In this document: positions 48,448 to 62,435 of the stretch, in pieces | Layout of the letters: each line of letters opens with the position of its first letter | Numbering within the stretch: the stretch's first letter is position 1 | Source: a virus | Lineage: Duplodnaviria; Heunggongvirae; Uroviricota; Caudoviricetes | Virus record (IMG/VR): IMGVR_UViG_3300048586_000134 | Location: 25,703 to 89,702 of that record | Length of the DNA stretch: 64,000 nucleotides | Reading direction: 5' to 3' (one strand) | Made by a program: the position numbers and the translations under genes | The notes under the pieces: model-generated | Database searches by the model: none | What the model was told of the DNA's origin: nothing | The model's input: only the letters and a program-made list of their open reading frames with translations

Positions 48448-48476
48448 AGTCTAGCAGGGAGTCAACTGCCTGTCAA
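48448..48476 (-). promoter_or_regulatory. array promoter TTGACA-17-TAGACT
   Basis: Read on the - strand, upstream of 47826..48413. Confidence 0.55.
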
Positions 48477-48495
48477 CTCCCTGCTGTTGCCTTCG

Positions 48496-49423: not shown

Positions 49424-49579
49424 GCCAGACGCCGTAGTGCATGCTACCAACCACCGATGTCGTCCAGCCAAAGCTCGAAGTCCAGTTCATCGTCTGTCCA
49501 GCAGACTAGCACATCGCCGTTCCGCATGTCAAGCATGGCGTCCAGCATGTCGTAGTACCAGTCAACGATCCAGCCGTGT

Positions 49580-50124: not shown

Positions 50125-50177
50125 GCCCTGTCCTTTCTGATTGACCAGCCCTCAGTGGTGCGGTACCACCCTCCTCG

Positions 50178-50206
50178 ATGATAGCAGCTTAGTTGCTCTC
50201 TGTCAA
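50178..50206 (-). promoter_or_regulatory. array promoter TTGACA-17-TATCAT
   Basis: Read on the - strand; overlaps the stop of the HNH gene. Confidence 0.55.
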
Positions 50207-50656
50207 GTGTTCGCATATCCCTCCGTTTCGTCGCTTGCTGTCGTTACAGTTTGCGCACAAGATTTGTAGCGTGTCAGGAAAGTCGTTTTTGATGATCCAG
50301 CGATATGTCTCACTCCCCGATGCTGACCGACGCTTTCCGTTGCTGATTTGCGCACGATGTTCATTACCGCCGCCCTCAATATGGTCGATGTGTAACATAG
50401 TCATCCGATGCTCACCACAACACGCACATTTATTTCCATAATGCTCGAATACTGTTGTCCGTAACTTTTCTCGATACCTCTTGTTTGCGTCCAGCTTATC
50501 AGCCGCATTGACAATCACTAAACAAGCCTGACACAACGATCCCTGTCTGTCAAGCGTCTTGCCACATTTCCCGCACAAGCCCTCCGCTCGTCGCTTGTGG
50601 TACGTCTGTCGTTGCCATGTCGCGCTGTACGTGTCAGATTTTATTTCTCTGCTCAT
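50189..50656 (-). CDS. HNH endonuclease
   Basis: ..MLHIDHIEGGGNEH..LQILCANCN.. is an HNH motif. N-terminal CxxC pairs are present. Confidence 0.7.
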   Translation of the reverse strand: MSREIKSDTYSATWQRQTYHKRRAEGLCGKCGKTLDRQGSLCQACLVIVNAADKLDANKRYREKLRTTVFEHYGNKCACCGEHRMTMLHIDHIEGGGNEHRAQISNGKRRSASGSETYRWIIKNDFPDTLQILCANCNDSKRRNGGICEHLTESN

Positions 50657-50733
50657 GTGTGCCTCCCGTACTGTAGAGACTACCCTATGCAGCCTCTACA
50701 GTACAGTAGCACCGACTACCGAATTAGTTTCCG

Positions 50734-50762
50734 TCCGTTCGGACGAACTCAGGACGGTTGAA
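50734..50762 (-). promoter_or_regulatory. TTGACA -35 with weak -10 (AGTTCG). Its long structured leader contains the 14-bp palindrome CGTCCGAACGGACG plus the hairpin TACTGTAGAG..CTCTACAGTA
   Basis: Read on the - strand, upstream of the HNH gene. May be a regulated promoter. Confidence 0.35.
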
Positions 50763-50778
50763 TGGTTGTCAAGTAGTC

Positions 50779-51090
50779 TTAGCGACACGTCCCATCTTCG
50801 TAGACCACGTACCCCGCTCGCTTCATTTTCGTAAAGTAGGTGCCGCTGAACGGGTAGACTCCATTCCTCGTGAGCGTCCGCTGATAGCCTGCACACGCTC
50901 CCGACCGTCGTACATACGTGCCGCGCTTGCTTCCCTCATCGCAGCCAGTCGCGTGCACAATCTGCGAATCCCTTACGCTCGTCTGTCCGTACCACCGCGC
51001 CCACATCAGGCACTCGCTCGACGCCGACGCGCTTCCACCATACCCGACGAACAGACTTGCCACGATTGCAATGATAACCACAAACCGCAT
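50779..51090 (-). CDS. small secreted Cys-rich protein (Sec signal peptide)
   Basis: MRFVVIIAIVASLFVGYGGSASA-SS.. with 6 Cys in the mature part. Confidence 0.45.
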   Translation of the reverse strand: MRFVVIIAIVASLFVGYGGSASASSECLMWARWYGQTSVRDSQIVHATGCDEGSKRGTYVRRSGACAGYQRTLTRNGVYPFSGTYFTKMKRAGYVVYEDGTCR

Positions 51091-51272
51091 TACCGCGCTA
51101 CCTCCTGCTGAATCCGTCGTGCCTTGTCCTCATTCCACACGATGCCGTGCCGAATCTGCTTGTTGCGCTTGTCTAGCTTGCGCTGCTCCTCCCGCTCACG
51201 CTCGATCCGTCGCCGTTCCGACTGCCGCTGCTGTCGTGCTCCCATGATACTTGCTCCTCTCGATCCTGTCAA
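51090..51272 (-). CDS. hypothetical Arg/Glu-rich basic protein
   Basis: 60-aa ORF. Its start overlaps the next promoter, so it is probably translated from the upstream transcript. Confidence 0.3.
   Translation of the reverse strand: MTGSRGASIMGARQQRQSERRRIEREREEQRKLDKRNKQIRHGIVWNEDKARRIQQEVAR
51244..51272 (-). promoter_or_regulatory. array promoter TTGACA-17-TATCAT
   Basis: Read on the - strand. Confidence 0.5.
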
Positions 51273-51282
51273 GTAGCGTCTG

Positions 51283-51612
51283 CTACGTGGTGGCGAAAAA
51301 CTTCTCGACCAGTGCTTCCAGATCGTCCCGCACGCTTACCAGCGTGCTGATGTATGCCTGTCGTGCGCTGTCGTTATCCTCCTCCTCTACGCCGTCCGTA
51401 ACCAGTGAGTCAAGACGATCTTTGATCGTGATGATGTCCCTGACTTCCTCAGTACTCACGGATGCCCGAACAGTCTTGATCGCCACCGCTCCGAGTGAGT
51501 CCTCGACTTCGTATTCCGCCTCTCTCACGGCTTGCTTTGCGGCATCCTCCTTGTCTGTCGCCCAAACCGTGTGCAAGCTGTCTTGTCGTACTGTAACCTT
51601 GAACCACTCCAT
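51283..51612 (-). CDS. hypothetical acidic protein
   Basis: 109-aa ORF. Confidence 0.4.
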   Translation of the reverse strand: MEWFKVTVRQDSLHTVWATDKEDAAKQAVREAEYEVEDSLGAVAIKTVRASVSTEEVRDIITIKDRLDSLVTDGVEEEDNDSARQAYISTLVSVRDDLEALVEKFFATT

Positions 51613-51619
51613 CTGTCAA
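51590..51619 (-). promoter_or_regulatory. promoter-like TTGACA-18-TACAGT
   Basis: Read on the - strand. It overlaps the annotated ATG of 51283..51612, so either the start or the promoter call is wrong. Confidence 0.3.
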
Positions 51620-51638
51620 GCCTCCTCAGTAGCCGTAG

Positions 51639-51896
51639 CTACACATCGAACTTACGGTCGAATCGATCAGCGGCCTCGGCCTCGTACAGTTCATCTTGGA
51701 AACTCTCGTCAATGTCAAGCACGTCTGCCTCGTAGTGCTTGCTTGCCGCGTCCGAGAGTGTGCGAAGAAAACTTTGCACTGCCTCCTCGACGGTTTCCGC
51801 CACTACATCGAAGTTGACGTAATATCGGTTCATGTCGTTACTCCTTCTCGACCAGACCGTAGCCGTGGATATCCGCGAGTGCCAGCAGAAGCGCAA
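51639..51896 (-). CDS. hypothetical acidic protein
   Basis: 85-aa ORF. Confidence 0.4.
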   Translation of the reverse strand: MRFCWHSRISTATVWSRRSNDMNRYYVNFDVVAETVEEAVQSFLRTLSDAASKHYEADVLDIDESFQDELYEAEAADRFDRKFDV

Positions 51897-52065
51897 GCGC
51901 CTCAGTTGACTTCAGGTGAATGCCTGTCTGATAATCGTACTGGCTCAGGCCAGTGTTGTCAAGATCATACCCGCCGCGAGTCGATGTCAACTCAATCGGG
52001 CTATCGTGGATCACCACCCGCACGTCGCCGTCGTCGCTCGTCCATTTCGTGTACGGCTTGCTCAT
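51838..52065 (-). CDS. hypothetical protein
   Basis: 75-aa ORF. Confidence 0.35.
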   Translation of the reverse strand: MSKPYTKWTSDDGDVRVVIHDSPIELTSTRGGYDLDNTGLSQYDYQTGIHLKSTEALALLLALADIHGYGLVEKE

Positions 52066-52067
52066 GT

Positions 52068-52598
52068 TCAGTCCTCCACTCCATCGAACATGCTGCTAGG
52101 ATAGCACACTCGGCATCCTTCGTCAAGCCACTCCTCATAGTATTCCAGCGGCTCGTCGCATTCGCTACATGTCGGCCAGTTCTCGATGATCGCTTGCCGT
52201 GCATACTCGTAGGCCAGTTGTTGCGCGTCACTGATCCATCGGTCAATGTCGCCGTAGCTTTGCCCATCCTCGCACAACTCATTCATCAGAACCGCGTGCT
52301 TGATGTTCTCGGCCAGCCAGCCAGTCAGCGCCAGCGTTTCGTAATCGGAGTCAGGAAGTACCATGTCCGCGATTTCGTCAGGACCGTTGAGACCGTTCAC
52401 CGCCGCGTCTGAAAGAAGTTCATGAACGTACTCGTATGCCGTATCCTCGTTCATGTTTTCCGCTGCCGCTCGCACCATTTCGCTCAGTGGCGTTTGTTGT
52501 GCGTGATCCCGCAGAAACCAGATGCGCTTGCCTGCACTCGTTACGCGAGTGTCGAACATGTTGCTCATTGCCTCGGTGATCGTGACCAGATCGCCCAT
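52068..52598 (-). CDS. hypothetical acidic protein (start MGDLVTI.., RBS GGAGG)
   Basis: The start lies downstream of the promoter at 52644-52672. Confidence 0.45.
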   Translation of the reverse strand: MGDLVTITEAMSNMFDTRVTSAGKRIWFLRDHAQQTPLSEMVRAAAENMNEDTAYEYVHELLSDAAVNGLNGPDEIADMVLPDSDYETLALTGWLAENIKHAVLMNELCEDGQSYGDIDRWISDAQQLAYEYARQAIIENWPTCSECDEPLEYYEEWLDEGCRVCYPSSMFDGVED

Positions 52599-52643
52599 GA
52601 TTGTCCTCCGTTTCGTCGTGCGGCCCTCGTTGACCACACCATC

Positions 52644-52672
52644 ACTGTACACCATCCTGCCAGCCGTGTCAA
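52644..52672 (-). promoter_or_regulatory. array promoter TTGACA-17-TACAGT
   Basis: Read on the - strand. The upstream gene's TAG stop sits in a GTAGCGGCGGCTAC hairpin 10 nt before the -35. Confidence 0.6.
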
Positions 52673-52682
52673 GTAGCCGCCG

Positions 52683-53142
52683 CTACAAATCCTCGAATGC
52701 GTCGTAACTCGCATCTGTCCAGTAACTAATCGTGCGGTAGATAACCCCGCCGATCTGCCAGCATGCCGCCTGTACAATAGGCATTGCCTCGTAGTCGCGA
52801 TACAGGTTGACGTAATCACCCACTTCCTTGATGTGTTCCTGTGCGAACTCCTTGAACGCCTCGATCATTTTCTTTTCGTCGCTTGCATATTGTAGCAGGA
52901 AGCGGTGCGACGGCTCACCCTGATACTTGACGAACTCGTTTCCGATTGCCGCCGTCCGTCCTCGGATCGTGTATTGATGATTCTCGATGAACGGCCCACG
53001 CTGCATGAGTGCCGCGTATGCCTCGTCATAGGTCGCGAACGAACTTTCATAAAACGGTTCATCGCCGCGAAGATCGATGTAAAACTTGCCGCTGTACGCC
53101 TGACCGATGTTGGCAACCGTGCCGCCGTTGATGTAGTTCATG
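52683..53142 (-). CDS. hypothetical protein (start MNYINGG.., RBS AGGGAGTGCGATC)
   Basis: The start was corrected to lie downstream of the promoter. Confidence 0.45.
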
Positions 53143-53184
53143 ATCGCACTCCCTGTGATGGTAGCCGTTGCTTGACTACCATCA

Positions 53185-53214
53185 CTGTACATCATTCGTC
53201 CATGTCCTGTCAAG
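53185..53214 (-). promoter_or_regulatory. array promoter TTGACA-18-TACAGT
   Basis: Read on the - strand; shares the conserved ACCATCACTGTACA block with 52644. Confidence 0.55.
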
Positions 53215-53223
53215 TAGTGACCG

Positions 53224-53460
53224 CTACCGAATCGACGGTCGTTCGTCGCCGCTGTCGTAGACGATGTAATACTCGTCCTCGTTCACACCCTCCCACGGAT
53301 CGCGGTACACGGTCGTTACACCCATCGTACTTCTCTGAATCTCAGCACTCACGTACTCGTCTTGGAGCGCTTCGTGCGCCAACTCGGATGCCTGCTCGAA
53401 CGTGTCTGCCTCAACAAAGAACTCGGATCGCTCGGTTACACCGACCTTGAAGAATGGCAC
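53224..53460 (-). CDS. hypothetical acidic protein
   Basis: 78-aa ORF. Confidence 0.4.
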   Translation of the reverse strand: MPFFKVGVTERSEFFVEADTFEQASELAHEALQDEYVSAEIQRSTMGVTTVYRDPWEGVNEDEYYIVYDSGDERPSIR

Positions 53461-53509
53461 TGTCGTTTACCCTTCACTTTACTGTCGTTATGCCGTGTTT
53501 CACTGTCGT

Positions 53510-53860
53510 TTAGAACTTGAAGTTGATCGCCGCGTCCTTCTTCGCGAGAATGTCCGCAGCCTCTTTCACGTTGACCGCGCATTGGAGATTGCATTCAAGC
53601 GCCTTCACGCCGTCGTAATTCTGACGCATCAGATCATCCTCGTCAACCGTGCCATAGTTGCGGAAGCTACTGTTGTTCAGCAGCCGCCCGAAGCGTCCCC
53701 ACATCCGCTTGCTCATGGTCACGTAGAAATACCCGTTCTCCACGCGAATCGAGATAACCGTGTTCATCTTGAACCGTGCACGCTCGGCTTCCTGTCGTGC
53801 ACACACATCGCATTCGATGTAGGTCACGGTCGTAAGAAAGTCTTTCGCCTCGTTGTTCAT
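53510..53860 (-). CDS. hypothetical protein
   Basis: 116-aa ORF. Confidence 0.45.
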   Translation of the reverse strand: MNNEAKDFLTTVTYIECDVCARQEAERARFKMNTVISIRVENGYFYVTMSKRMWGRFGRLLNNSSFRNYGTVDEDDLMRQNYDGVKALECNLQCAVNVKEAADILAKKDAAINFKF

Positions 53861-53904
53861 CGGTGCCTCTCCTCGGTGACACGGCCCTCATCGACCGTGC
53901 CACC

Positions 53905-53933
53905 ATGTTAGCCTATCGCTCAGTCGTTGTCAA
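53905..53933 (-). promoter_or_regulatory. array promoter TTGACA-17-TAACAT followed by leader hairpin
   Basis: Read on the - strand. The leader contains GGTGGCACGG..CCGTGTCACC. Confidence 0.55.
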
Positions 53934-53952
53934 GTGCCTTGTGTTGCGTTCG

Positions 53953-54609
53953 CTACTTGATCGGCGCTCCGAAGAATTGTTCGCTGTACCACACTCCCAC
54001 TTGTGGCGCGTAGTCGCCCGTTATGGCATAGTAGGCTTGTTGGCCGCATGTCTCGCTAAAGAGTGCGTGATGTGCCATGCGTGAGAACAGTTTCGCGTGA
54101 CTGTAGTACGCTTTCGTCTCGCCAGCCCATCCGAATGACCCACCCGAAGCGAAGTGACCCAGCACGTCATGCACTGCACGAAAGATGGTGTTGAGCGTCT
54201 CGTTTCGGCCATTGTACCAGATGAATCCCTGATCCAGAAACTCATGGTCGCCAGCGCTACGGAACACTCGCAGCACGCCAGTCTCGTTGAACTCCGCGAA
54301 CGTCTCAGCCGCCGACTTGAAACCCTCCCCTGTCACGTTCGGATCATCGTCCACGAACTCGAACACGAACCCGCGAGAGAGAAGGTAGGCCCACTGCTCG
54401 GCCAGTTCATTCATGAATGCCTCGTAACTCAGGATCAGATCGGCGCGATGTGGCTTGAAGTCGATGCGGTAATCGTTCGCCTGTCGCTCGTAGATGTCGA
54501 AAATCACCTGCTGATAGTCTGTCAGATCGACATCCAGCGTGTCAAGTGGCTTACGCTGGAACGGATAGGCAGTGTGTGCATCGACCGCTGACTGAATCGG
54601 AGTAGGCAT
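53953..54609 (-). CDS. hypothetical protein (start MPTPIQS.., RBS GGGAGAAC)
   Basis: The start was corrected to lie downstream of the promoter at 54653-54681. Confidence 0.45.
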   Translation of the reverse strand: MPTPIQSAVDAHTAYPFQRKPLDTLDVDLTDYQQVIFDIYERQANDYRIDFKPHRADLILSYEAFMNELAEQWAYLLSRGFVFEFVDDDPNVTGEGFKSAAETFAEFNETGVLRVFRSAGDHEFLDQGFIWYNGRNETLNTIFRAVHDVLGHFASGGSFGWAGETKAYYSHAKLFSRMAHHALFSETCGQQAYYAITGDYAPQVGVWYSEQFFGAPIK

Positions 54610-54652
54610 TGATGTTCTCCCTCGTTTGTGGTCCCTCGACCACCGTGCAACC

Positions 54653-54681
54653 ACTGTACCACGTTCGGTTTCGCTTGTCAA
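54653..54681 (-). promoter_or_regulatory. array promoter TTGACA-17-TACAGT (GTG extended -10)
   Basis: Read on the - strand. Confidence 0.55.
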
Positions 54682-54685
54682 GCCC

Positions 54686-54937
54686 CTAGTAGTCGATTGC
54701 CTCCCGCTCGTTGTATTCAGGCTCATACTCGCCGCACGTATCGCAGGCTACGAAGTACTCATCGCGACTTTCCGAACAACACCCACACGCGAAGTAGTGC
54801 GTTTCGGTGTCAATCGTCAGCCTAGCACCCTCGCCGCCGCATCGCGGACACTTGACCGTGTACTCCTCGCGGTCGTTGTACGTGCGAGAACTGTACTCGC
54901 TTTCGTATTCGTCCACGTACTGCTCGTCCTCGTCCAT
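54686..54937 (-). CDS. zinc-ribbon protein (start MDEDEQY.., RBS GAGGAG)
   Basis: CPRCGGEG..CGCC..CDTCGEYEP. Confidence 0.45.
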   Translation of the reverse strand: MDEDEQYVDEYESEYSSRTYNDREEYTVKCPRCGGEGARLTIDTETHYFACGCCSESRDEYFVACDTCGEYEPEYNEREAIDY

Positions 54938-54960
54938 CGTGTCGCTCCTCACTTGTGACT

Positions 54961-54989
54961 ACTGTATCACGTTCGGATCAGGTTGTCAA
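54961..54989 (-). promoter_or_regulatory. array promoter TTGACA-17-TACAGT
   Basis: Read on the - strand. Confidence 0.55.
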
Positions 54990-55138
54990 GTGTTTGCTAC
55001 GATTCGATGCTCCTCAGTGTAGCCGCCGCTACGCTTGATGTCGATGTAAACGCGTGCGGTTTCGAGTGTGACGCAGCGTGCCAGCGGATCAGGCACCCAA
55101 TGACCGCGTGTGAAGTACTCAACCCTGAACGTCTGCAT
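54986..55138 (-). CDS. small hypothetical protein (50 aa; start MQTFRVEY..)
   Basis: RBS AAGGGAGCACGATC precedes the ATG, downstream of the promoter at 55193-55221. Confidence 0.35.
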   Translation of the reverse strand: MQTFRVEYFTRGHWVPDPLARCVTLETARVYIDIKRSGGYTEEHRIVANT

Positions 55139-55192
55139 GATCGTGCTCCCTTGCTTGTGGTGACCAACCCTCGTTGGTGCCGTACAGTCCTC

Positions 55193-55221
55193 ACTATACG
55201 GCACGGACGAATGTTTGTCAA
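55193..55221 (-). promoter_or_regulatory. array promoter TTGACA-17-TATAGT followed by leader hairpin
   Basis: Read on the - strand. Confidence 0.55.
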
Positions 55222-55229
55222 GCCCCTCG

Positions 55230-55970
55230 TTAGTAGCCGAAGATACCAAGATGTGACTCAAAGTAGCCGTGCTGAATCTGCCACATCGCCCACTGTAGCA
55301 CGAATGGCCGATACCCGTTCTGTCGCGCCCACTCGACCAGCGTAGCCTCAAGCATGCGATAGGGCACTTTGTTGACCGTCATGCTTGTCGCCGTGATGCC
55401 ACCCACGAACGATTGTAGCATCCTCAGCATGTGCACGTCAAGTGTGAACACATCGGCGTCACCGTTGAACAAGGCAACCGCCATTGCCGCCGTTTTCTCG
55501 CCCACGTTCCGCAACTTTCCTTGTTTCTTTAGGGCCAGTAGGTTATCCTTCGTCATATCCTCTGGCTCAATGTTGCGGATCGTGTCAAGCGATGTGAAGA
55601 TACCGCGTGCAGCCCCGCCAGCCGTCACCCATGACATCGCGCCGTCGTTCGTCAGGATACGGTAGACATCATCGACCGTCTCGAAGTTGTCATACAACCG
55701 ATCCATGATCCTGCGAGTCGCCGCGACATTGTGACCGAACCAGCATTGCGGTGATATTATCGCGAACACCAGCGACGTTTGAGCGTGCAGTATCGCGTCC
55801 TGTTCTCGCAGTGCATCCATGACTGCCACTTCAGCCGCGATTGCATCCACGTTCGCGTCAATCTCTGGCTTGATGCGTTCCATGTGATTGTTCAGCACCA
55901 GCAGGATACGTGCCGCATCCTCAGCCTTGACCGTGTAGGATGCCTGATCGTGATTGCTAACGCTCGCCAT
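55230..55970 (-). CDS. HhH-GPD superfamily DNA glycosylase (endonuclease III-like)
   Basis: Helix-hairpin-helix plus catalytic Asp: ..LRNVGEKTAAMAVALFNGDADVFTLDVHMLRML.. Start corrected to MASVSNH. Confidence 0.5.
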   Translation of the reverse strand: MASVSNHDQASYTVKAEDAARILLVLNNHMERIKPEIDANVDAIAAEVAVMDALREQDAILHAQTSLVFAIISPQCWFGHNVAATRRIMDRLYDNFETVDDVYRILTNDGAMSWVTAGGAARGIFTSLDTIRNIEPEDMTKDNLLALKKQGKLRNVGEKTAAMAVALFNGDADVFTLDVHMLRMLQSFVGGITATSMTVNKVPYRMLEATLVEWARQNGYRPFVLQWAMWQIQHGYFESHLGIFGY

Positions 55971-56016
55971 GTCTGTACCCTTCCTCGTTCGTGCCAGCCC
56001 ATCGCTGACACTCTCA

Positions 56017-56045
56017 CTATCGCACATCCTCAGCAGGTTGTCAAG
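56017..56045 (-). promoter_or_regulatory. array promoter TTGACA-17-GATAGT
   Basis: Read on the - strand. Confidence 0.5.
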
Positions 56046-56061
56046 TGCTCGTTTGTCGTTT

Positions 56062-56187
56062 GCGCTACAACCCTCCTGCCAGCCAGCCCACTAGTATCAC
56101 CAGCCCATACAACACGCTCGGCACCACCACCCAAGCGATGTTCTGATTGCGAGTCCACTTTTTCGGCGGATAGTGCTTCATGATCGG
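56062..56187 (-). CDS. small membrane protein (~42 aa, below track cutoff)
   Basis: Hand-translated as MAPIMKHYPPKKWTRNQNIAWVVVPSVLYGLVILVGWLAGGL. Confidence 0.3.
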
Positions 56188-56214
56188 TGCCATTGCCTCT
56201 CCTCGCTTGTGTCT

Positions 56215-56243
56215 ACTCTACCAGCCTGTCAAGCGTTTGTCAA
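56215..56243 (-). promoter_or_regulatory. array promoter TTGACA-17-TAGAGT (two overlapping TTGACA hexamers)
   Basis: Read on the - strand. Confidence 0.5.
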
Positions 56244-56344
56244 CCCGCACCGCAGATGCTCAGGACCGTAGCAACTATCACCCACAAGAGAATGAAGATT
56301 GCCGCACCAGTGAGAAGATACCCGATACGCTGTCCGATGCTCAT
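56240..56344 (-). CDS. small membrane protein (~34 aa, below track cutoff)
   Basis: Hand-translated as MSIGQRIGYLLTGAAIFILLWVIVATVLSICGAG. Its TGA stop overlaps the next -35. Confidence 0.3.
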   Translation of the reverse strand: MSIGQRIGYLLTGAAIFILLWVIVATVLSICGAG

Positions 56345-56375
56345 TGCATCCTCCCTGTCTCGCTACCGTGCCACC

Positions 56376-56404
56376 ACTCTAGCACGGTAGCGCCGTCTTG
56401 TCAA
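56376..56404 (-). promoter_or_regulatory. array promoter TTGACA-17-TAGAGT
   Basis: Read on the - strand. An upstream GTAGCGGCGACTAC hairpin carries the TAG stop of 56415..56741. Confidence 0.6.
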
Positions 56405-56414
56405 GTAGTCGCCG

Positions 56415-56741
56415 CTACTCGATCCAAACGACCTTCGCGGGAATGCTCCAATCAATCGCGTCTGCCAGTTGATAGAGCCGCTGTCCCTGTACGATCACCT
56501 GAAAGTGATTGATGAGTGCCGCCGTGTAGTCCGTGCGACTGAATGGCACATACTTCGCGTTTAGGTCAACCGTCCCGATGCAATCCTCAATCGTCCCGCG
56601 TATCGCGGCCAGCGTCTTCCCTCGCTTGACATCGTTATCGTAGCTAAATGAATTGATACCCTTCAGGTTGTCCAGCACGTCCTCGAAGTGCACGATAGCG
56701 TCCGCGAGAATGTCGTTACCGAACAATTGATCGACCGTCAT
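56415..56741 (-). CDS. hypothetical protein
   Basis: 108-aa ORF. Confidence 0.45.
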   Translation of the reverse strand: MTVDQLFGNDILADAIVHFEDVLDNLKGINSFSYDNDVKRGKTLAAIRGTIEDCIGTVDLNAKYVPFSRTDYTAALINHFQVIVQGQRLYQLADAIDWSIPAKVVWIE

Positions 56742-56786
56742 GACCGTTCTCCCTCGCTAGTGGCACCGTCTCTCGATGCCACTAGC

Positions 56787-56815
56787 ACTGTACCAGACTG
56801 CCAAACGTTTGTCAA
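56787..56815 (-). promoter_or_regulatory. array promoter TTGACA-17-TACAGT followed by leader hairpin
   Basis: Read on the - strand. The leader contains GCTAGTGGCA..TGCCACTAGC. Confidence 0.6.
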
Positions 56816-56825
56816 GTAGTCCGTG

Positions 56826-57104
56826 CTACGGATGCAGTGGCAGCACCACCGTGTCCGTATCGTGTGCATTCCCGCGCTCGTCCGTCGCGACCGTCATGAG
56901 CGTGTACATCGTGGCGTCCACATTATTACGCCACATACAATACCGCAACACCGTATCCTCGCCCACGACTTCGCTGATGTTGACCCCGATCACTTCCTTA
57001 TTGTCAATCAGCAACCTGCCCATGTCCAGCGCCGTTGTGCGTGACTGCAAGAGAACGGGAAACGCGTGCGGCTTGTCCTTGACCATCACGATAACCTGAT
57101 ACAT
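56826..57104 (-). CDS. hypothetical protein
   Basis: 92-aa ORF. Confidence 0.45.
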   Translation of the reverse strand: MYQVIVMVKDKPHAFPVLLQSRTTALDMGRLLIDNKEVIGVNISEVVGEDTVLRYCMWRNNVDATMYTLMTVATDERGNAHDTDTVVLPLHP

Positions 57105-57140
57105 GGTGCCTCTCCTCGCTTGTCTCGCTCGACTGTTACC

Positions 57141-57169
57141 ACTCTACCAGACACGGATCAGATTGTCAA
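57141..57169 (-). promoter_or_regulatory. array promoter TTGACA-17-TAGAGT
   Basis: Read on the - strand. Confidence 0.55.
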
Positions 57170-57439
57170 TGCCTCGCTTGTCGCGTTCGCTACATCGAAT
57201 GTCGTTTGCAGCGCCAGCGTCCGACCGTCGCACGTCGTCACGTATTCCCACATGACGCCCGTATTTTCGTGCGAGTCGCGATACAGTTGACGGACCCGAT
57301 GTTCACCCTCGTAAAGTATCGCGCCGTCACAATCGGGAGATGCCACCACCATTTTCGCCAGCGTGGTAGCCGCCGCTACCGTGTCCACATCGAACCGCAT
57401 CAGGCTACCCGACTTGCTGCGAACGTCCACCGTAATCAT
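57158..57439 (-). CDS. hypothetical protein (start MITVDVRSK..)
   Basis: RBS GAGGGAGTGCGGTC precedes the ATG. Confidence 0.45.
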   Translation of the reverse strand: MITVDVRSKSGSLMRFDVDTVAAATTLAKMVVASPDCDGAILYEGEHRVRQLYRDSHENTGVMWEYVTTCDGRTLALQTTFDVANATSEALTI

Positions 57440-57476
57440 GACCGCACTCCCTCGCTTGCTTGCCTCGACTGTCACC

Positions 57477-57505
57477 ATTCTAGCAGGTTGCTTGTCGGTT
57501 GTCAA
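57477..57505 (-). promoter_or_regulatory. array promoter TTGACA-17-TAGAAT
   Basis: Read on the - strand. Confidence 0.55.
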
Positions 57506-57852
57506 CCCCCAATCTGTAGCCTGCACGACAGTCGCATATCAGCCAGTGCGTACATCGCACGTCCGAACTCGCTCACGCATGGTAGCGGAAGATACGCGTC
57601 TCGACCGTCCTTCTTGATGCCGACAATCCACGCCAGCGGAATAAATGTCTGCTCGTAATAGACTACTATACCTAGGTGGCCGTCGTGTGTCGCGCCGACA
57701 CTTTGCTCCTTGATGAAATCCTTACTCACGTCAAACAAATCGCTCAGCTTTTCTTTTGCCTCGTCAATGGCCGTGTACTCGTCCCGTAGTCGATCCTCGC
57801 TGAATGATGCCGCGCCAACAAAGTGCAGTTTACCGTCTTTCCAGTTGACCAT
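57502..57852 (-). CDS. hypothetical protein (start MVNWKDGK..)
   Basis: RBS GGGAGAACGGTC precedes the ATG. Confidence 0.45.
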   Translation of the reverse strand: MVNWKDGKLHFVGAASFSEDRLRDEYTAIDEAKEKLSDLFDVSKDFIKEQSVGATHDGHLGIVVYYEQTFIPLAWIVGIKKDGRDAYLPLPCVSEFGRAMYALADMRLSCRLQIGG

Positions 57853-57895
57853 GACCGTTCTCCCTTGTGAGTGCAGCCCCGACTTGACTGCACTC

Positions 57896-57924
57896 ACTCT
57901 ACCATGCCTGAATCCCGTTGTCAA
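57896..57924 (-). promoter_or_regulatory. array promoter TTGACA-17-TAGAGT followed by leader hairpin
   Basis: Read on the - strand. The leader contains GAGTGCAG..CTGCACTC. Confidence 0.6.
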
Positions 57925-57934
57925 GTAGTCCGTG

Positions 57935-58141
57935 CTACTTGACTTTCACGATCACGCCGTCTTTCAGTTCCACTTCAGCGTACCACTTGTGGTATTCAGC
58001 AGGGCCAGAAATAAACTCCCTGCCATTGCGCGGTGGAGCCTGAAAGAGATAGTAACTCTCGTCAAGTACCACGCGCTCGCCCTTCGCGACCGCTTCCTTG
58101 AATGCCTTCTTGCTCTTGAAGTCAGGAATGATGTGCGCCAT
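57935..58141 (-). CDS. hypothetical protein
   Basis: 68-aa ORF preceded by GGGAGAACGATC. Confidence 0.45.
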   Translation of the reverse strand: MAHIIPDFKSKKAFKEAVAKGERVVLDESYYLFQAPPRNGREFISGPAEYHKWYAEVELKDGVIVKVK

Positions 58142-58188
58142 GATCGTTCTCCCTTGTGTGAGTGTGACCGTCCCTCGACCACACTCAC

Positions 58189-58217
58189 ACTATACCATGC
58201 TGCCAGCCAGTTGTCAA
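58189..58217 (-). promoter_or_regulatory. array promoter TTGACA-17-TATAGT followed by 11-bp-stem leader hairpin
   Basis: Read on the - strand. The leader contains GTGTGAGTGTG..CACACTCACAC. Confidence 0.6.
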
Positions 58218-58222
58218 GTAGC

Positions 58223-58762
58223 CTAGGCGACAATCTCCTCCACGTCTGCCGCCGTTGGAGCCTTACCCCATGCGGGTATCGGTACATAGGTCACACTATA
58301 GCCACCGCTCGACCGTGACACAAGCACCGCGTCCCGCCAGATATAGGCCAGTTGGTAGCCCTTGCTACGCAGCGTGGCAATCGAACGCTTGTTCCACACT
58401 ATCGTGCCGTCATCCTGCACGTCCCGACGCGGAATGCTCAACCATGCCACCGCATCGCCCGTAGGTTGCCCACGCTCATCCCATGCGCTTGTGACCAGCC
58501 ACTTAGGTCCGTACCGTGTCTCCACAATCTTACACGGTACAGGATTGCCTGTCAAGTCCACCAGACCCTCGAAATCGTAGCGTCCGTTACTTTCGGCCAG
58601 TGTCGCCGCCAGATCGTATGCGCGGGCCATTGTGTCGCTCGCCCACTGCGAGAGAAAACCGTCAGTATCAGACCGCTCGAAAGAATCCTCGGACGACTTC
58701 CGCGATGCGCGTGCCATTGCGCGGAACTCATCAGCCGTGTGATCGATCTTGATGACGCTCAT
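58223..58762 (-). CDS. hypothetical protein
   Basis: 179-aa ORF. Confidence 0.45.
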   Translation of the reverse strand: MSVIKIDHTADEFRAMARASRKSSEDSFERSDTDGFLSQWASDTMARAYDLAATLAESNGRYDFEGLVDLTGNPVPCKIVETRYGPKWLVTSAWDERGQPTGDAVAWLSIPRRDVQDDGTIVWNKRSIATLRSKGYQLAYIWRDAVLVSRSSGGYSVTYVPIPAWGKAPTAADVEEIVA

Positions 58763-58806
58763 TGAGATTCTCCCCGCTAGTGCAGCCGTCCCTCGACTGC
58801 ACTAGC

Positions 58807-58835
58807 ATCATAGCACGTCCGACCGTCCCTGTCAA
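58807..58835 (-). promoter_or_regulatory. array promoter TTGACA-17-TATGAT followed by leader hairpin
   Basis: Read on the - strand. The leader contains GCTAGTGCAG..CTGCACTAGC. Confidence 0.6.
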
Positions 58836-58845
58836 GTAGTCGCCG

Positions 58846-59217
58846 CTACACCGCGTATTGCTTGCCCCAATTCCATGACGGCTCACCCTCGTTCTCGTTG
58901 CGCGTGAACTCCTGAATGAAGCGGCGATCACCGCTCACATTGTAGGTTGCCAGCACGAAACCGTCATGTGTGTTGTCGATGATGCGACCGCCGCAATCGT
59001 TGTCCGTGGCATAGCGTACACCATACCGCGTCATGGTGTCAAGCGCATCGGAGTAGTCCTTGCTACCCTTGATCGTGGCGATGACGCGTGGCGTGCCATT
59101 CTCCCAGCGGTTGAACTCGACTACGAAACACTCGCACACGAGATAGTTTGCCGCGTCAAGTGTCTGGCCGCAACCTTCGCAGAATCCCATGACCGTCCTC
59201 CCTTGTGGCGTAGCCAA
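58846..59217 (-). CDS. hypothetical Cys-containing protein
   Basis: 123-aa ORF. Confidence 0.45.
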   Translation of the reverse strand: MATPQGRTVMGFCEGCGQTLDAANYLVCECFVVEFNRWENGTPRVIATIKGSKDYSDALDTMTRYGVRYATDNDCGGRIIDNTHDGFVLATYNVSGDRRFIQEFTRNENEGEPSWNWGKQYAV

Positions 59218-59232
59218 CTCGACTACGCCACT

Positions 59233-59261
59233 ACTCTACCACGTCCGACCGATGCTGTCAA
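59233..59261 (-). promoter_or_regulatory. array promoter TTGACA-17-TAGAGT
   Basis: Read on the - strand. Confidence 0.6.
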
Positions 59262-59271
59262 GTAGTCTCGA

Positions 59272-59604
59272 CTACCAGCGGATCGCCCCGCGCTCAGCCC
59301 CGCGACCGCCGTTCTCATCCGCCCACGCGTTCCAGTGATCGCGATAGTTGATGATCGTATCAAAGTCAAGCGGTCGCCGCATGCACTGAATGGGCCGATA
59401 CTTATAGTCCACAAGTTTGCCGTTCGATGCGCGATAGGTGACGTATGGCTCATCCGTTCGCCATATCCGCGTTATGAACGATCCCGCTTTGAGCATAGCA
59501 TATGCTTGTGGCAGTGTCAAGCCGTCAATCGTTCGGCGGATGTGACCCTGATTCTCGACCGCCAGCACCACGGACGCCGCGTACATACCCTGAGCCTTCT
59601 TCAC
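59272..59604 (-). CDS. hypothetical protein (probable GTG start within conserved GGAGAACGGTC-GTG block)
   Basis: The track ORF start lies upstream of the promoter. The conserved RBS/start block places the start at a GTG. Confidence 0.4.
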   Translation of the reverse strand: MKKAQGMYAASVVLAVENQGHIRRTIDGLTLPQAYAMLKAGSFITRIWRTDEPYVTYRASNGKLVDYKYRPIQCMRRPLDFDTIINYRDHWNAWADENGGRGAERGAIRW

Positions 59605-59646
59605 GACCGTTCTCCTTCGTGGCACGATCCCGATTGACCGTGCCAC

Positions 59647-59675
59647 CACTTTACCACCGTTCCGACCGTCTGTCA
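59647..59675 (-). promoter_or_regulatory. array promoter TTGACA-17-TAAAGT
   Basis: Read on the - strand. Confidence 0.5.
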
Positions 59676-59701
59676 AGTCCCCAGCGTAGCGCCGACTACT
59701 T

Positions 59702-59821
59702 TCGTGCATTCTTTTCCTTCACGAGACAAACTTCGCACAGTTCGGGATTCTCGCGAGTGCACCCACACGAGCCGCACTCCACACACGCGAGATTGTCAAG
59801 ATCGACCGTGCTCATGATCCT
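59702..59821 (-). CDS. small zinc-finger protein (39 aa, below track cutoff)
   Basis: Hand-translated as MSTVDLDNLACVECGSCGCTRENPELCEVCLVKEKNARK. The TAG stop lies inside the GTAGTCGGCGCTAC hairpin. Confidence 0.35.
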
Positions 59822-59875
59822 ACTCCCTGCTAACTATCCCTGAGCGACCATCGCTCATTGGTGGGCTACGTGAGT

Positions 59876-59904
59876 AGCATAGCCCACGGATGAGAGATTG
59901 TCAA
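59876..59904 (-). promoter_or_regulatory. array promoter TTGACA-17-TATGCT followed by leader hairpin
   Basis: Read on the - strand. The leader contains GAGCGATGGTCGCTC. Confidence 0.55.
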
Positions 59905-59923
59905 GACCCTAGTGTAGCGCCGA

Positions 59924-60185
59924 CTACTTCGACAATTCTTCCAGCCGATTTTGAGCACGCATCGCCGCCGACTGATAGTAATAGGCCCGAATAATTGCCA
60001 TGCCGCGCTCGACCGTCACCTGAGCGAGCATGTGTATCTCAGTGAGTGCCATATTTTCGTTCGCGTTGAATACGAAAAGCCGCATTTTGCCCGTATTTTC
60101 GTCAATTTGAACGCGGCCTACTGGTTCGCCACCGAATCCCTTGACGCGGATAACTTTCTCAGTGTCAAGAATCGTGCCAGACATT
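59924..60185 (-). CDS. hypothetical protein (start MSGTILD.., RBS GGGAGG)
   Basis: The upstream part of the track ORF contains the promoter. Confidence 0.45.
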
Positions 60186-60239
60186 GCGCGTGCCTCCCGT
60201 TTGTTCGTGTGAGTGACCATCACTCTCGATTGTGCTAGC

Positions 60240-60268
60240 ATGCTAGCACAATGGGGAACGATTGTCAA
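60240..60268 (-). promoter_or_regulatory. array promoter TTGACA-17-TAGCAT overlapping the 20-bp perfect palindrome TGTGCTAGCATGCTAGCACA
   Basis: Read on the - strand. A leader hairpin GAGTGATGGTCACTC follows. Confidence 0.6.
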
Positions 60269-60287
60269 GTGCCAAGTGTAGCGCCGA

Positions 60288-60458
60288 CTACGCGAGTCGT
60301 GCATGCTCGCCGCGATTCGCGGAGTAGAGTGCCAGCGTAATGCCGACATACTTTCGGCGCAGAAAGTTTAGGACGTTCTCGGCTTCGTCGCGCCGCGTGC
60401 CATTGTGGAGAATCGCATCGGGAGAAAAGTTTTCACCGATAACCACATGGTACGTCAT
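60288..60458 (-). CDS. small hypothetical protein (start MTYHVVIGE..)
   Basis: RBS AGGAG precedes the ATG. It is the last gene of the leftward array. Confidence 0.4.
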   Translation of the reverse strand: MTYHVVIGENFSPDAILHNGTRRDEAENVLNFLRRKYVGITLALYSANRGEHARLA

Positions 60459-60516
60459 GACCAGACTCCTGACTAGAACGGATGTGCGAGTGACCATCAC
60501 TCTCACTAACGCTACC

Positions 60517-60545
60517 AGTGTAGCACTAGTGAGAATGATTGTCAA
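60517..60545 (-). promoter_or_regulatory. array promoter TTGACA-17-TACACT followed by leader hairpin
   Basis: Read on the - strand. It is the outermost promoter of the leftward array. The leader contains GAGAGTGATGGTCACTCG. Confidence 0.55.
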
Positions 60546-60789
60546 GTCTCTTGCGAGACTCGCATCATTCCCGATGGTAGCTTGCGCTACCGTAGGAAGA
60601 TGGTCCTATCTGTCAACTAGGACCATTGCGCTATTCGATGTCACGTTCTTCTTGTGTACGTTCGCCTTCGTTTCGATAGCCAGAGCCGTTATGTTGGCTA
60701 CCACGAACGTACACTCAGAGCGTCAACACTCCAGAGCGCTAAGTTGTCAATGTGCCCATAGAGTCAGCTAAGCGTCCCTCAGTAGTCCG

Positions 60790-61055
60790 TACTACTCACT
60801 AGCTCGCGCCTCCCCCCCTTACCATAACGGACGCTTACGCGTGGTAGCTATGGCAGACGAGTTACAAACATTCGCGAGTTTCCACGAGTAGTCGTGGCTA
60901 CGTCCCTCAGCAGAGCGGACTATGCGCTATGTCGCATGAAGTCAGATAGGTCAGGCCGTTCAATCAGAGAGTGAGCCATCGATGGTAGTCATGCGTTCGC
61001 GTGTCCGTTTCACCACGCGTTCGGCTTACCGCGACCATCGGTGCACCGTGCTATG
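60790..61055 (-). ncRNA. candidate structured non-coding RNA (promoter-driven, no ORF)
   Basis: A TTGACA-17-TAGTCT promoter at 61061-61089 points into ~270 bp with no ORF of 30 aa or more in any frame. The region is dense in short hairpins (CCACGAGTAGTCGTGG, GTAGTCCGTACTAC, ATGCGCTATGTCGCAT, CACCGATGGTCGCGG). Fold and exact ends were not determined. Confidence 0.25.
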
Positions 61056-61060
61056 TGAGT

Positions 61061-61089
61061 AGACTAGCAGAGAATCAGCGCCGTGTCAA
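61061..61089 (-). promoter_or_regulatory. sigma70-like promoter TTGACA-17-TAGTCT
   Basis: Read on the - strand. Confidence 0.5.
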
Positions 61090-61094
61090 GAGAG

Positions 61095-61250
61095 TCAGGT
61101 AGCGTATGCAACAGAGCCGTAATTTTGCTTTGCGAAACAATCGGGGCGCTTACTTCATTCGGCGTGACGCGACTGTTTCCGTAGCTTGACCGCCGAAGCG
61201 GATTTTGTCTCTCGCCGTTCGGTTTCCCGTTCGGCTTGATGTGACTACTA
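61095..61250 (-). ncRNA. candidate small non-coding RNA with UUCG-tetraloop hairpin
   Basis: Lies downstream of the TTGACA at 61270-61275. It contains CCGC-UUCG-GCGG (plus-strand ccgccgaagcgg ~61191-61202) and repeated CCGAACGG. The only ORF (61064..61291) is low-complexity and starts upstream of the promoter. Confidence 0.2.
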
Positions 61251-61485
61251 TGCCATAGCATGAAACCATTGTCAAGCGGTTTCGCAGTCAATTCTAAAAT
61301 TGTTGCGCAACTTGACTACTACGACTCATACTCGAACGGATGTTCTACTAATCAGGATTGTGAGTGTTTATGTCAAGTTGTCTGATAGTAGAACAAATGT
61401 TCTAATCAGGGGATCATTAGCATGGTAAAGGACTTTACTTGGTAACTAACGATTAGTAAGTATGTATCTCTTGACTGACATTGTT

Positions 61486-61835
61486 TCGCAGCGCGTTGCG
61501 CGTGCGTATGTGCGCGTATGCGTATGCGCGTCTCGCACGCGTGCGCATGCATGCGCGTTGCGCGGTTCCAACGTGACGCGAAAAGCGACTCGTTAGCTAC
61601 GCAAAGCAAAGTTTCCTCGCGTATGCGCGTGCACGCGTGTGAGTGGCAGTTGTTGATATAAAACTCAAGATTAGTAATCTCGCAGCGTGCGTATGCGCGT
61701 GCACTGATTGTCGAGTTCTGGATAAAGAACTCAAGATTAGCAATGTAGATTGTTGACTTGTGGATCAACAACTGGCCGTTAGTTTTCTCGCGTGCGTCAC
61801 GCGTGCACGTATGCGCGTGCGAGGAGCTTAGCTAC
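61486..61835. repeat. four alternating purine-pyrimidine, palindrome-rich GC tracts built on GCGTGCGTATGCGCG (Z-DNA/cruciform-prone)
   Basis: The tracts are interleaved with direct repeats AACTCAAGATTAG[T/C]AAT (x2), GATTAGTAA (x3) and TTAGCTACGCAAAG[C/T]AAA (x2). Tract 61497-61531 is 35 bp of perfect R-Y alternation, then CGCACGCGTGCG and GCATGCATGC. Further copies lie at ~61615-61640, 61685-61704 and 61790-61821. Confidence 0.8.
61759..61767 (-). promoter_or_regulatory. DnaA-box-like 9-mer TGATCCACA (1 mismatch) inside inverted repeat TTGTTGA..TCAACAA
   Basis: Plus-strand tgtggatca. It is flanked by ttgttgacttgtggatcaacaa. Confidence 0.3.
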
Positions 61836-62204
61836 GCAAAGTAAATCGGCCCTATTACTTATCGTTACTAACCCCTAGAATCGCCTGTTTGGTGTCGTTA
61901 TGCGGTCACTAATGGTAGACATCATTTTACGCGTGGAATGCGCTTAGAATCGATTGTAGCGCCTTACAGACGTATCCTAGAATTGACGCCAACACCAAAA
62001 ATGCGGTCTTTTACCACGCTAAATAACAGCGTCACTGTTGTTGACTGCCACATAGGGCATTCTTTACTGTCCGTTACTGTCGTTGCTTTGATTCATAACG
62101 ATAAGTAATATCGATTTTGCCTCTTTTCTGACCCAACAGGATTGTTGACGGCCACTAATGAAACCTAACGCCGTTCGGATAGCCTAACGACGTTCGCTCA
62201 GGCA

Positions 62205-62235
62205 TGCGCGTGCGTGCGCGTGCGCGTGCGTAGCG
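62205..62235. repeat. fifth alternating purine-pyrimidine GC tract (GCATGCGCGTGCGTGCGCGTGCGCGTGCGTA)
   Basis: Read directly. Same family as the 61.5-61.8 kb tracts. Confidence 0.8.
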
Positions 62236-62426
62236 TTCGGTTTGGCGAACGTTGTTCGCTTATCCTAACGTTGTTCGGAGTAGGGTACAGTGTTAGGTAG
62301 AGTGGATTGTTTAGTTCTTTACTACTTACTTTATTTCTGCGCGTAGCTATCATAACGTGCGTCACTTACACAACGTTAGCGACCGAACGTTAGCTATGCT
62401 AAGCAAACTATCGCATCTCTCATTGT

Positions 62427-62435
62427 TGATCCACA
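62427..62435 (+). promoter_or_regulatory. DnaA-box-like 9-mer TGATCCACA (1 mismatch)
   Basis: Lies in ttgttgatccacaac, which is related to the 61759 element in the opposite orientation. Confidence 0.3.

Follow-up and report, generated by a model that had tools for sequence, protein, structure and literature searches.

Covarying stem-loops at the promoters of an early-gene cassette array in an uncultured phage

We analysed a 64,000-nucleotide stretch (the window) of a tailed-phage genome (Caudoviricetes; IMG/VR record IMGVR_UViG_3300048586_000134, positions 25,703 to 89,702) and, within it, an array of co-oriented early-gene cassettes whose promoters usually carry an inverted repeat. The stems of these repeats occur far above chance, and because their arms differ between units yet stay complementary, they are selected structures and not a fixed-sequence operator. 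We give an even chance to the interpretation that they form the stem-loop part of promoter/stem-loop/ribosome-binding-site (RBS) cassettes standing before nearly every early ORFan, analogous in function to the promoter-early stem-loop (PeSL) cassettes of T4-type phages.

Cassette promoters and their covarying stems

All genes between ~46 and 60.6 kb lie on the minus strand. The array genes are small and almost all ORFans, and Pfam and PHROG searches of the array proteins returned no confident function. Each cassette (Table 1) runs from the stop codon of the previous gene through TTGACA-N17-TAnAnT and, usually, an inverted repeat to a Shine-Dalgarno (SD) sequence (GGGAG or GAGGAG) and an ATG. 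The promoter motif is present in all 20 cassettes (with an 18-nt spacer in one unit), has an extended -10 TG at -15/-14 in 15 and is followed by G as the first base after the -10 in 16. The SD-to-ATG spacer GAGAACGGTCATG is nearly identical across many units, and the initiation region of all 20 cassettes is conserved as a single module. Across 46-64 kb, promoter-like sites number 52 against 11.8 +/- 3.2 in shuffles, nearly all on the minus strand; terminator-like sites are not enriched (11 vs 13 expected).

Perfect Watson-Crick stems of at least 8 bp (loop 3-14) number 15 in 52.5-60.7 kb against 1.5 +/- 1.2 in dinucleotide shuffles, and 16 against 8.6 expected in the remaining 52 kb of the window. 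RNA folding of the cassettes gave z <= -1.9 in 13 of 20, with seven equalled by none of 200 shuffles. The seven intervals that the initial annotation had listed as stems are -35 to -10 promoter spans, which the stems themselves abut at lower plus-strand coordinates; further copies had gone unlisted (Table 1). That annotation had also placed the stems 1-8 nt past the -10. Stems of this post-(-10) kind, which we call class A, are found in 11 units: the best start between the fifth base of the -10 and +2 (range -1 to +2) in eight, and three weaker ones begin +5, +5 and +10 after the -10. In class B (units 60545, 60268, 59904, 56404 and 55221, with another repeat at 47257-47282 outside the array) the repeat encloses the -10; two of these, 60268 and 60545, had been taken for post-(-10) stems, but their large repeats (60229-60252; 60491-60544) surround the hexamer. 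Four class B units form an imperfect hairpin of 20-28 bp from the -35 (TGACAAT) to a downstream ATGGTCA. Repeats around a -35 occur at 60600-60626, 48453-48485 and 9388-9415. Cassettes 57505, 57169, 56243 and 54989 have little or no hairpin, and 54681 and 52672 a weak one. The first two of these are degraded: they have lost the 3' arm but keep promoter, 5' arm (GGTGACAG / GGTAACAG) and the TCGAG that opens the loop, and they resemble the 'half PeSLs' of T4-type phages.

Compensatory variation, claimed at the outset, is borne out by an ungapped-stem alignment of eight class A copies from the window and one from a relative (A2). In A2, 95.6% of cells are paired, compared with 69.4% in column shuffles and 21-51% in slid-register controls, and two-sided changes affect 9 of 13 pairs. 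The 5' arms are ~52% identical between units, ~98% complementary to their own 3' arm and 68% to the arms of other units; a fixed-sequence DNA operator was rejected on this ground, its half-sites being unconserved. The outer six pairs, whose 5' partners are nt 1-6 past the -10, are 94.4% paired against 58.5% when shuffled and have a covariation score of 0.958, as against 0.651 for the inner seven. A covariance model built from A2 finds these window copies only, with no extras outside promoter cassettes.

The recurring loop first described (TCGAGGGACGG) is in part helix: U.G, C-G and sometimes G-C pairs lengthen the stems to 11-15 bp and leave loops of 5-7 nt, such as AGGGA, AGAGA and GAGUU. Its exact motif, GTCGAGGGAC, occurs only three times, but conservation of the apex is real and exceeds that of the base, with columns T11, C12, A14 and G20 invariant and U.G in 8 of 9 copies. 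The recurring flank ATGGTCACTC is either a separate 6-bp hairpin (GAGTGAtggTCACTC, at 60211-60225 and 60488-60502) or belongs to the long class B hairpin, whose 3' end, at the downstream ATGGTCA, pairs with the -35.

It is highly improbable, in our judgement, that the palindromes have no selected function and merely hitch-hike with duplicated cassettes, kept complementary by gene conversion or intrastrand template switching. Such an origin would allow for the clear paralogy of the cassettes, for the decay of some of them (57505, 57169) and for the several in the window and in the relative contig L015 that lack a hairpin; yet the stems are ten-fold above shuffles, arms that have diverged to ~52% identity are still ~98% paired, and orthologous genes of relatives (~45% amino-acid identity) have hairpins at different positions.

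Table 1. Promoters, hairpins and repeats of the array. Coordinates refer to the window; MFE, minimum free energy; copies absent from the initial annotation are called new.
Feature	Coordinates	Strand	Details
Array of 20 co-oriented early-gene cassettes	52596..60545	-	~100-bp unit before each of 20 small genes
Promoter of gene 57852-57502	57896..57924	-	TTGACA-17-TAGAGT, extended -10 TG; predicted +1 = A at 57889
Class A hairpin GTGAGTGCAG-tcaagtcgggg-CTGCACTCAC	57867..57897	-	12 bp by MFE; z -3.19; 38.9 bits; 5' arm begins in last 2 nt of -10; 4 bp left 3' of predicted +1
Promoter of gene 58141-57935	58189..58217	-	TTGACA-17-TATAGT
Class A hairpin GTGTGAGTGTG-gtcgagggacggt-CACACTCACAC	58156..58190	-	15 bp, 2 G.U by MFE; loop AGGGA; z -2.36
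Class A hairpin GCTAGTGCAGUCG-aggga-CGGCTGCACTAGC	58776..58806	-	13 bp; z -4.52; 43.2 bits
Class A hairpin GCTAGTGGCATCG-agaga-CGGTGCCACTAGC	56756..56786	-	13-14 bp; z -4.09
Class A hairpin GTGGCACGGTC-aatcgg-GATCGTGCCAC	59619..59646	-	new; 11 bp; z -3.44
Class A hairpin GTGGCGTAGTC-gagtt-GGCTACGCCAC	59205..59231	-	new; 11 bp; z -1.98
Class A hairpin GGTGGCACGG-tcgatgaggg-CCGTGTCACC	53875..53904	-	internal G.U; z -3.02
Class A hairpin GTGATGGTAG-tcaagcaacgg-CTACCATCAC	53155..53185	-	new; z -3.61
Weak class A hairpin GTGTGGTC-aacgag-GGCCGCAC	52618..52639	-	new; 8 bp, 2 G.U; +5 from -10; 14.7 bits, E 0.79
Hairpin GTGTCAGC-gatgg-GCTGGCAC	55991..56011	-	new; 8 bp, 1 G.U; +5 from -10; z -1.86
Short hairpin GTGGTC-gagg-GACCAC	54628..54643	-	new; begins 10 nt past -10, so wholly within local transcript
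Class B imperfect hairpin	60491..60544	-	20-25 bp; -35 (TGACAAT) to ATGGTCA, about +21; -10 in loop; z -4.73
Class B hairpin, core palindrome ATTGTGCTAG-catg-CTAGCACAAT	60214..60267	-	outer arms TGACAATCG + ATGGTCA region; z -2.43; core 60229-60252, perfect 10-bp stem, 4-nt loop, centred on -10
Class B repeat GTGGGCTA-N11-TAGCCCAC around -10	59861-59887, within 59841..59887	-	z -2.81
Second hairpin of the 59841..59887 element, TGAGCGAtggTCGCTCA	59841-59857	-	compensated version of GAGTGAtggTCACTC
Class B repeat CGCTACCGTGC-tagagtggtg-GCACGGTAGCG around -10	56361..56392	-	z -4.26
Class B long hairpin, -35 to +30	55161..55220	-	core GTGCCGTA-N12-TACGGCAC around -10; inner CCAAC-gagg-GTTGG; z -4.63
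Repeat ATGGTCCTA-gTTGACAga-TAGGACCAT around a -35 hexamer	60600..60626	-	
Degraded cassettes	57437..57505, 57102..57169	-	z +0.53 and -0.72
GTAG-N6-CTAC, examples	58836-58849, 57925-57938, 56405-56418, 59686-59699 (within 49434-60901)		

Stem placement, predicted transcription start and the acting molecule

Sigma-70-type RNA polymerase starts 6, 7, 8 or 9 nt past the -10 in 8, 55, 29 and 7% of cases, and prefers a purine that follows a pyrimidine (PMC5730371). In the array, a pyrimidine at nt 6 and a purine at nt 7 after the -10 coincide in 19 of 20 cassettes, with or without a hairpin (background 0.28, p = 4e-10), and at any other offset in at most 12. By their sequence the promoters are of the host sigma-70/sigma-A type, and this pattern, together with the published start distribution (PMC5730371), almost certainly puts the predicted local +1 at nt 7, within the class A 5' arm. 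The outer 5-8 pairs of the post-(-10) stems therefore lie upstream of the predicted local start. Moreover, since class A stems start at or before nt 2 and class B stems enclose the -10 or -35, the full helix would be impossible in RNA made from a unit's own promoter, and the 8-11 bp stem that had been proposed for the 5' end of the local transcript is not supported. The outer pairs, with their untranscribed 5' partners, are those that covary most, which argues that selection acts on a molecule containing the promoter, either read-through RNA or DNA.

A local transcript is predicted to carry a 6-7 bp apical hairpin 0-3 nt from +1 in 8 of the 11 post-(-10) units (e.g. GCAGUCGagggaCGGCUGC), while units 57924, 53213 and 58217 keep at most 4 bp or no 5'-terminal hairpin in the MFE fold. 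The initial annotation had proposed that the hairpin is a 5'-terminal structure of the local mRNA that keeps RNases from attacking early transcripts at the 5' end; the enzymes concerned would be RppH/RNase E, or RNase J1/Y if the host is Gram-positive. Protection is possible for the apical remnant of the eight units, and both the greater sequence conservation of this retained part and the L015 hairpin, which begins 6 nt after its -10, would agree with it. As an explanation of the hairpins we nevertheless regard it as unlikely, because it leaves selection on the outer stem, upstream of +1, unexplained, fails in the three units named above, and cannot extend to class B repeats around the -10 or -35, which are not contained in local RNA.

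The same apex could be a recognition site for a phage or host RNA-binding factor (an antiterminator, translational repressor or dedicated endonuclease) that co-regulates the early transcripts. Its conservation over the base, the SD-like GAGG or GGGA in the loops and the distance from hairpin end to ATG, 13-14 nt in 8 of 11 post-(-10) units, would all suit such a factor. We hold this to be very unlikely: the exact loop motif is confined to three units, diverges in the others and is missing from class B; none of the 20 array proteins tested showed an RNA-binding domain; and common descent, or constraint on the first nucleotides transcribed, could suffice to explain the conserved apex.

As to whether the structure acts as RNA or DNA, the initial preference for an RNA structure over an operator stands in so far as the arms differ yet stay complementary; for RNA as such the evidence is suggestive. 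Non-Watson-Crick positions in the best helices, read on the sense strand, are G.T in 11 cases and A.C in 3 (p = 0.057), which together with the U.G conserved in 8 of 9 class A copies makes an RNA-level reading probably the better one. Sense-versus-antisense folding was rejected as evidence: the sense-strand advantage (5.3 kcal/mol, p = 0.0004) comes mostly from G-rich composition and falls to p = 0.12 with a composition control.

Alternatively, the repeats might act as DNA, extruding as cruciforms or hairpins that make promoter strength depend on supercoiling or that serve as sites for structure-specific proteins or recombination. Every repeat overlaps or abuts a promoter core, including two intragenic promoter-like sites; class B centres are AT-rich -10 regions with 4-nt loops, as in the 24-bp palindrome 60229-60252, and would extrude readily; strand asymmetry is not significant after composition control; and in PeSLs recombination crossovers map in or near the loop (PMC2839356). 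We rate a DNA element as improbable all the same. The repeats have no fixed register with respect to the polymerase footprint, being centred at the -35, the -10 or about +9; class A loops of 9-13 nt (counting Watson-Crick pairs) disfavour cruciforms; unit-specific arms exclude a single sequence-specific dimeric repressor; and the excess of G.T over A.C (11:3) and the conserved U.G would be meaningless in duplex DNA. Elsewhere the loop motif shows no enrichment that would mark it as a binding site in DNA.

Our preferred reading, a PeSL-like cassette array, would place the helix in read-through RNA that starts at the co-oriented promoters lying 0.2-0.8 kb upstream; such read-through is suggested by the co-orientation of the units and the lack of intrinsic terminators between them. 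In that RNA the hairpin would most likely be an intercistronic barrier or processing boundary, shielding the preceding cistron at its 3' end and the following cistron on its 5' side; pausing or attenuation of the read-through polymerase is a possible further effect. The 13-14 nt gap before the ATG would leave the SD single-stranded. In locally initiated RNA only 4-7 bp of the conserved apex would remain, exactly at the 5' end, and may lend some 5' protection. The ~100-bp repeated cassettes could also supply homology for modular gene shuffling.

Several points weigh against this account. Read-through is deduced solely from the co-orientation of the units and the lack of terminator-like sites (11 vs 13 expected). 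No U-tract follows any hairpin, so canonical termination, the function measured for one PeSL, is unsupported. Between 4 and 6 of the 20 cassettes have no hairpin, which must therefore be dispensable for individual genes. The sense folding advantage vanishes under composition control, so that strand evidence is suggestive only, and the repeats at the two intragenic promoter-like sites hint at a tie to promoter DNA and not to intergenic RNA. Finally, the covariation counts are not independent events, since the copies are paralogues in one genome plus three short relative contigs. Intrinsic terminators were rejected as candidates: ACAAGGGAG and similar sequences follow the hairpins, and none of the hairpins is among the terminator-like sites.

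A further idea, which we consider quite unlikely, is that the discriminator serves as one strand of the helix so that the same gene is expressed from two structurally distinct mRNAs, sorted, processed or translated differently. Read-through RNA would contain the full 11-15 bp hairpin, or the whole promoter in a 25-bp duplex; local RNA would contain only the apical mini-hairpin and a free 3' arm; and a phage or host factor would read the apex of U.G, C-G and purine loop. If true, this would amount to a regulon-wide post-transcriptional switch of ~15 early genes.

Relatives and neighbouring elements

Only three metagenomic contigs with this architecture were found, all short (L008, L009 and L015), with homologous genes at 43-47% amino-acid identity; L008 and L009 are 99% identical. 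Hairpin placement varies in all three as it does in the window. Three of five L008 cassettes have 10-17 bp repeats around the -10 (e.g. CTTGACCACGTgctatagttcttACGTGGTCAAG) and one has a class A stem, GCGTACGG-tcgaatggg-CCGTACGC; at 1062-1118 the same contig has a counterpart (z -5.3) of the long hairpin that spans -35 to +21 in window unit 60545, in which one A-U pair has become U-A and two G.U pairs have become G-C. Orthologous genes of the window and L008 are preceded by different cassette classes. Gene C orthologues have three different hairpins, in registers +10 (window), around the -10 (L008) and +6 (L015), and both the window and L015 have several cassettes without one. Hairpin presence is thus conserved while sequence and register are not, which fits an intergenic RNA structure and fits poorly a mechanism that depends on polymerase geometry or an exact 5' end. 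Gene order is B-A-Y-C in L008 (1-2515; Y unrelated) and A-X-B, followed by ~10 genes and then C, in the window (53953-58762), a difference that cassette-mediated shuffling would be expected to produce, as judged from only three short relative contigs.

In L015, a called GTG start at 843-880 overlaps the end of the -10 (TACAGTGgaaac...) and may mark a leaderless message or a mis-called start. The distant contigs L010 (9932-19716) and L011 encode a homologue of a 179-aa protein and have TTGACA promoter arrays in which these hairpins are not present; in L010 a conserved leader, TGTAAGCGAGA..ACACACA, lacks any hairpin, and L011 has short repeats around the -35 (GGAGGAC-TTGACA-GTCCTCC) at 6600-6660 and 8650-8700. 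Further searches added nothing: an IMG/VR scan with the cassette pattern gave 7 chance matches of unrelated sequence, IMG/VR searches for loci via PolA gave none, a metagenome scan for promoter plus GAGTGATGGTCACTC recovered only an already-known contig, and a genome-contig scan with the endolysin gave one uninformative 3-kb contig of a metagenome-assembled genome.

The window is part of a large phage genome of lytic type and 52% GC, encoding a family A DNA polymerase, DnaB helicase, AEP primase, class II ribonucleotide reductase and NAMPT, together with an amidase/glucosaminidase endolysin and a tail endopeptidase. No INPHARED phage matched 52-61.5 kb by megablast, and the window PolA is at most about 30% identical to any INPHARED record. 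One array protein is 100% identical to a protein encoded on a 127,895-bp JGI metagenome contig, the contig to which the window belongs. Rfam at gathering threshold gave zero matches over the whole window and, in E-value mode, nothing meaningful over 60.5-64 kb; a tRNA scan of the window found none. A search with the tail protein gave no match, and the endolysin has weak similarity to Bacillus phages. This similarity, the extended -10 TG motifs and the very strong SD suggest a Gram-positive-type host.

The stop codon at the 5' end of a cassette is usually the TAG of a 14-bp palindrome, GTAG-N6-CTAC (sense GTAGCGGCGACTAC), present in 22 copies against 0.43 expected, all but one in 49.4-60.9 kb. 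It usually adjoins the -35 or sits 9 nt upstream of it, with a few intragenic copies (55019, 57366, 58355, 59053), and is also found in L008 and L015. Its arms are conserved in sequence without covariation, and we consider it a candidate protein-binding site or cassette boundary. Within genes, a promoter-like TTGACA-17-TAAGAT in gene 58762-58223 (58511-58555) has a perfect 9-bp repeat around its -10 (58511-58540), and a perfect 8-bp repeat surrounds a TTGACA in gene 54609-53953 (54533-54560); an intragenic TTGACA-17-TAAAAT is conserved in the L008/L009 homologue, and the repeat is not.

Elsewhere, positions 36041-36094 form a perfect palindrome of 54 bp (stem 25 bp, loop 4 nt; GTTTCTAGGTAGAGAAGAAAGAATActagTATTCTTTCTTCTCTACCTAGAAAC) in the intergenic DNA that separates the NAMPT block of genes from the DnaB block, upstream of a minus-strand SD and ATG. 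Possible identities are an operator, an origin-like element or a site for RNase III. Positions 60550-63400 (~2.8 kb) have almost no credible open reading frames and no Rfam match, and contain at least five strong promoter-like sites (-35 at 61376, 61275, 61089, 60750 and 60616) with no SD and ATG after them. A CCGC-UUCG-GCGG tetraloop hairpin lies downstream of the 61275 promoter, alternating purine-pyrimidine GCGTGCGTATGCGCG repeats at 61.5-62.2 kb, and iteron-like repeats (e.g. TTGTTGATCCACAA, AACTCAAGATTAGTAA) in the same region, a possible location of early non-coding RNAs, of an origin or genome terminus, or of both.

Comparison with known systems

PeSL cassettes are known from the T4-type phages RB49/phi1, PST/T4 and nt-1/KVP40 (Arbiol et al. 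2010, PMC2839356; Comeau et al. 2014, PMC4122927). Their stem-loops overlap the -35, overlap the -10 or lie just downstream of it (PMC2839356), and they have G-T pairs in stems, cluster among ORFans, and show degraded copies and gene shuffling (PMC2839356; PMC4122927). The array matches them in its near-consensus sigma-70-type early promoter (20/20 cassettes), in a stable stem-loop at variable positions relative to the -35 and -10 (z <= -1.9 in 13/20), in a cassette set between an upstream stop codon and an SD with start codon and repeated among the ORFans of a plastic region, and in G-T pairs, degraded copies and a gene order that differs between relatives. It differs in belonging to an unrelated phage lineage, whose lysin points to a host of Gram-positive type, in having stems that are particular to each unit and covary where PeSL stems follow one phage-wide consensus (Gn-loop-Cn, for instance), in lacking a U-rich tail, and in having the GC-rich palindrome upstream of the -35 in place of an AT-rich tract. 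Terminator activity, measured for one PeSL, and mini-circle formation are described on the PeSL side. Because lineage, stem covariation, tail and upstream region differ, we propose that the array works like a PeSL array and is not a homologous member of the PeSL family.

In T7, RNase III processing hairpins lie between early genes. The same is stated for Bacillus phage SP82 in those passages of PMC4838370 that cite Panganiban & Whiteley 1983 and Mitra & Bechhofer 1994. The array likewise has intercistronic hairpins in what would be a polycistronic early RNA, defining and stabilising single messages if the role proposed here is right; in contrast, its class A stems are 11-15 bp with no internal-loop architecture, and every array gene has its own promoter. 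Class B duplexes (20-25 bp) would be long enough for RNase III, which needs about 20 bp or more, and class A would be too short.

Stem-loops at the 5' end stabilise mRNA in the E. coli ompA leader and B. subtilis aprE, and cryIIIA STAB-SD is an SD-like 5' stabiliser; the T4 gene 32 leader is cited as a 5' stabilising stem-loop in a passage of PMC8948821. Eight array units resemble these in a hairpin a few nt from the predicted 5' end with a purine-rich, SD-like loop, but a local transcript would include no more than the inner 4-7 bp, and the helix reaches upstream of +1 into the -10.

In work by Stewart and colleagues from 1998, the host-takeover module of SPO1 reportedly combines dense strong early sigma-A promoters with small ORFans and unusually strong SD sequences, and its units are said to end in terminators. 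The array shares the dense, very strong sigma-A-type early promoters, the small ORFans and the strong SD, but has no homology to this module, and its hairpins overlap promoters and covary; we know of no report of covarying promoter-overlapping hairpins for an SPO1-type module. Promoter-proximal RNA hairpins also occur as lambda nut boxB and HK022 put, and the array is like them in placing small hairpins, their pentaloops rich in purines, directly after early promoters. Unlike them, it has no boxA and no GNRA-like loop signature, its 5' arm is partly untranscribed, and its ~15 copies have no terminators to override.

If our reading is correct, promoter/stem-loop cassettes are not peculiar to T4-type coliphages: large lytic phages would have arrived at them convergently as a means of organising and shuffling their early 'host-takeover' ORFans, in this case within a lineage that is uncultured, probably soil-derived and without a sequenced close relative. 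The array is also an unusually clean case in which untranscribed discriminator bases co-evolve with transcribed bases 20 nt downstream, which constrains where the structure acts. In practical terms, the cassettes are promoter/RBS modules that are both compact and strong, and they are useful markers when the early regions of metagenomic phage contigs are annotated.

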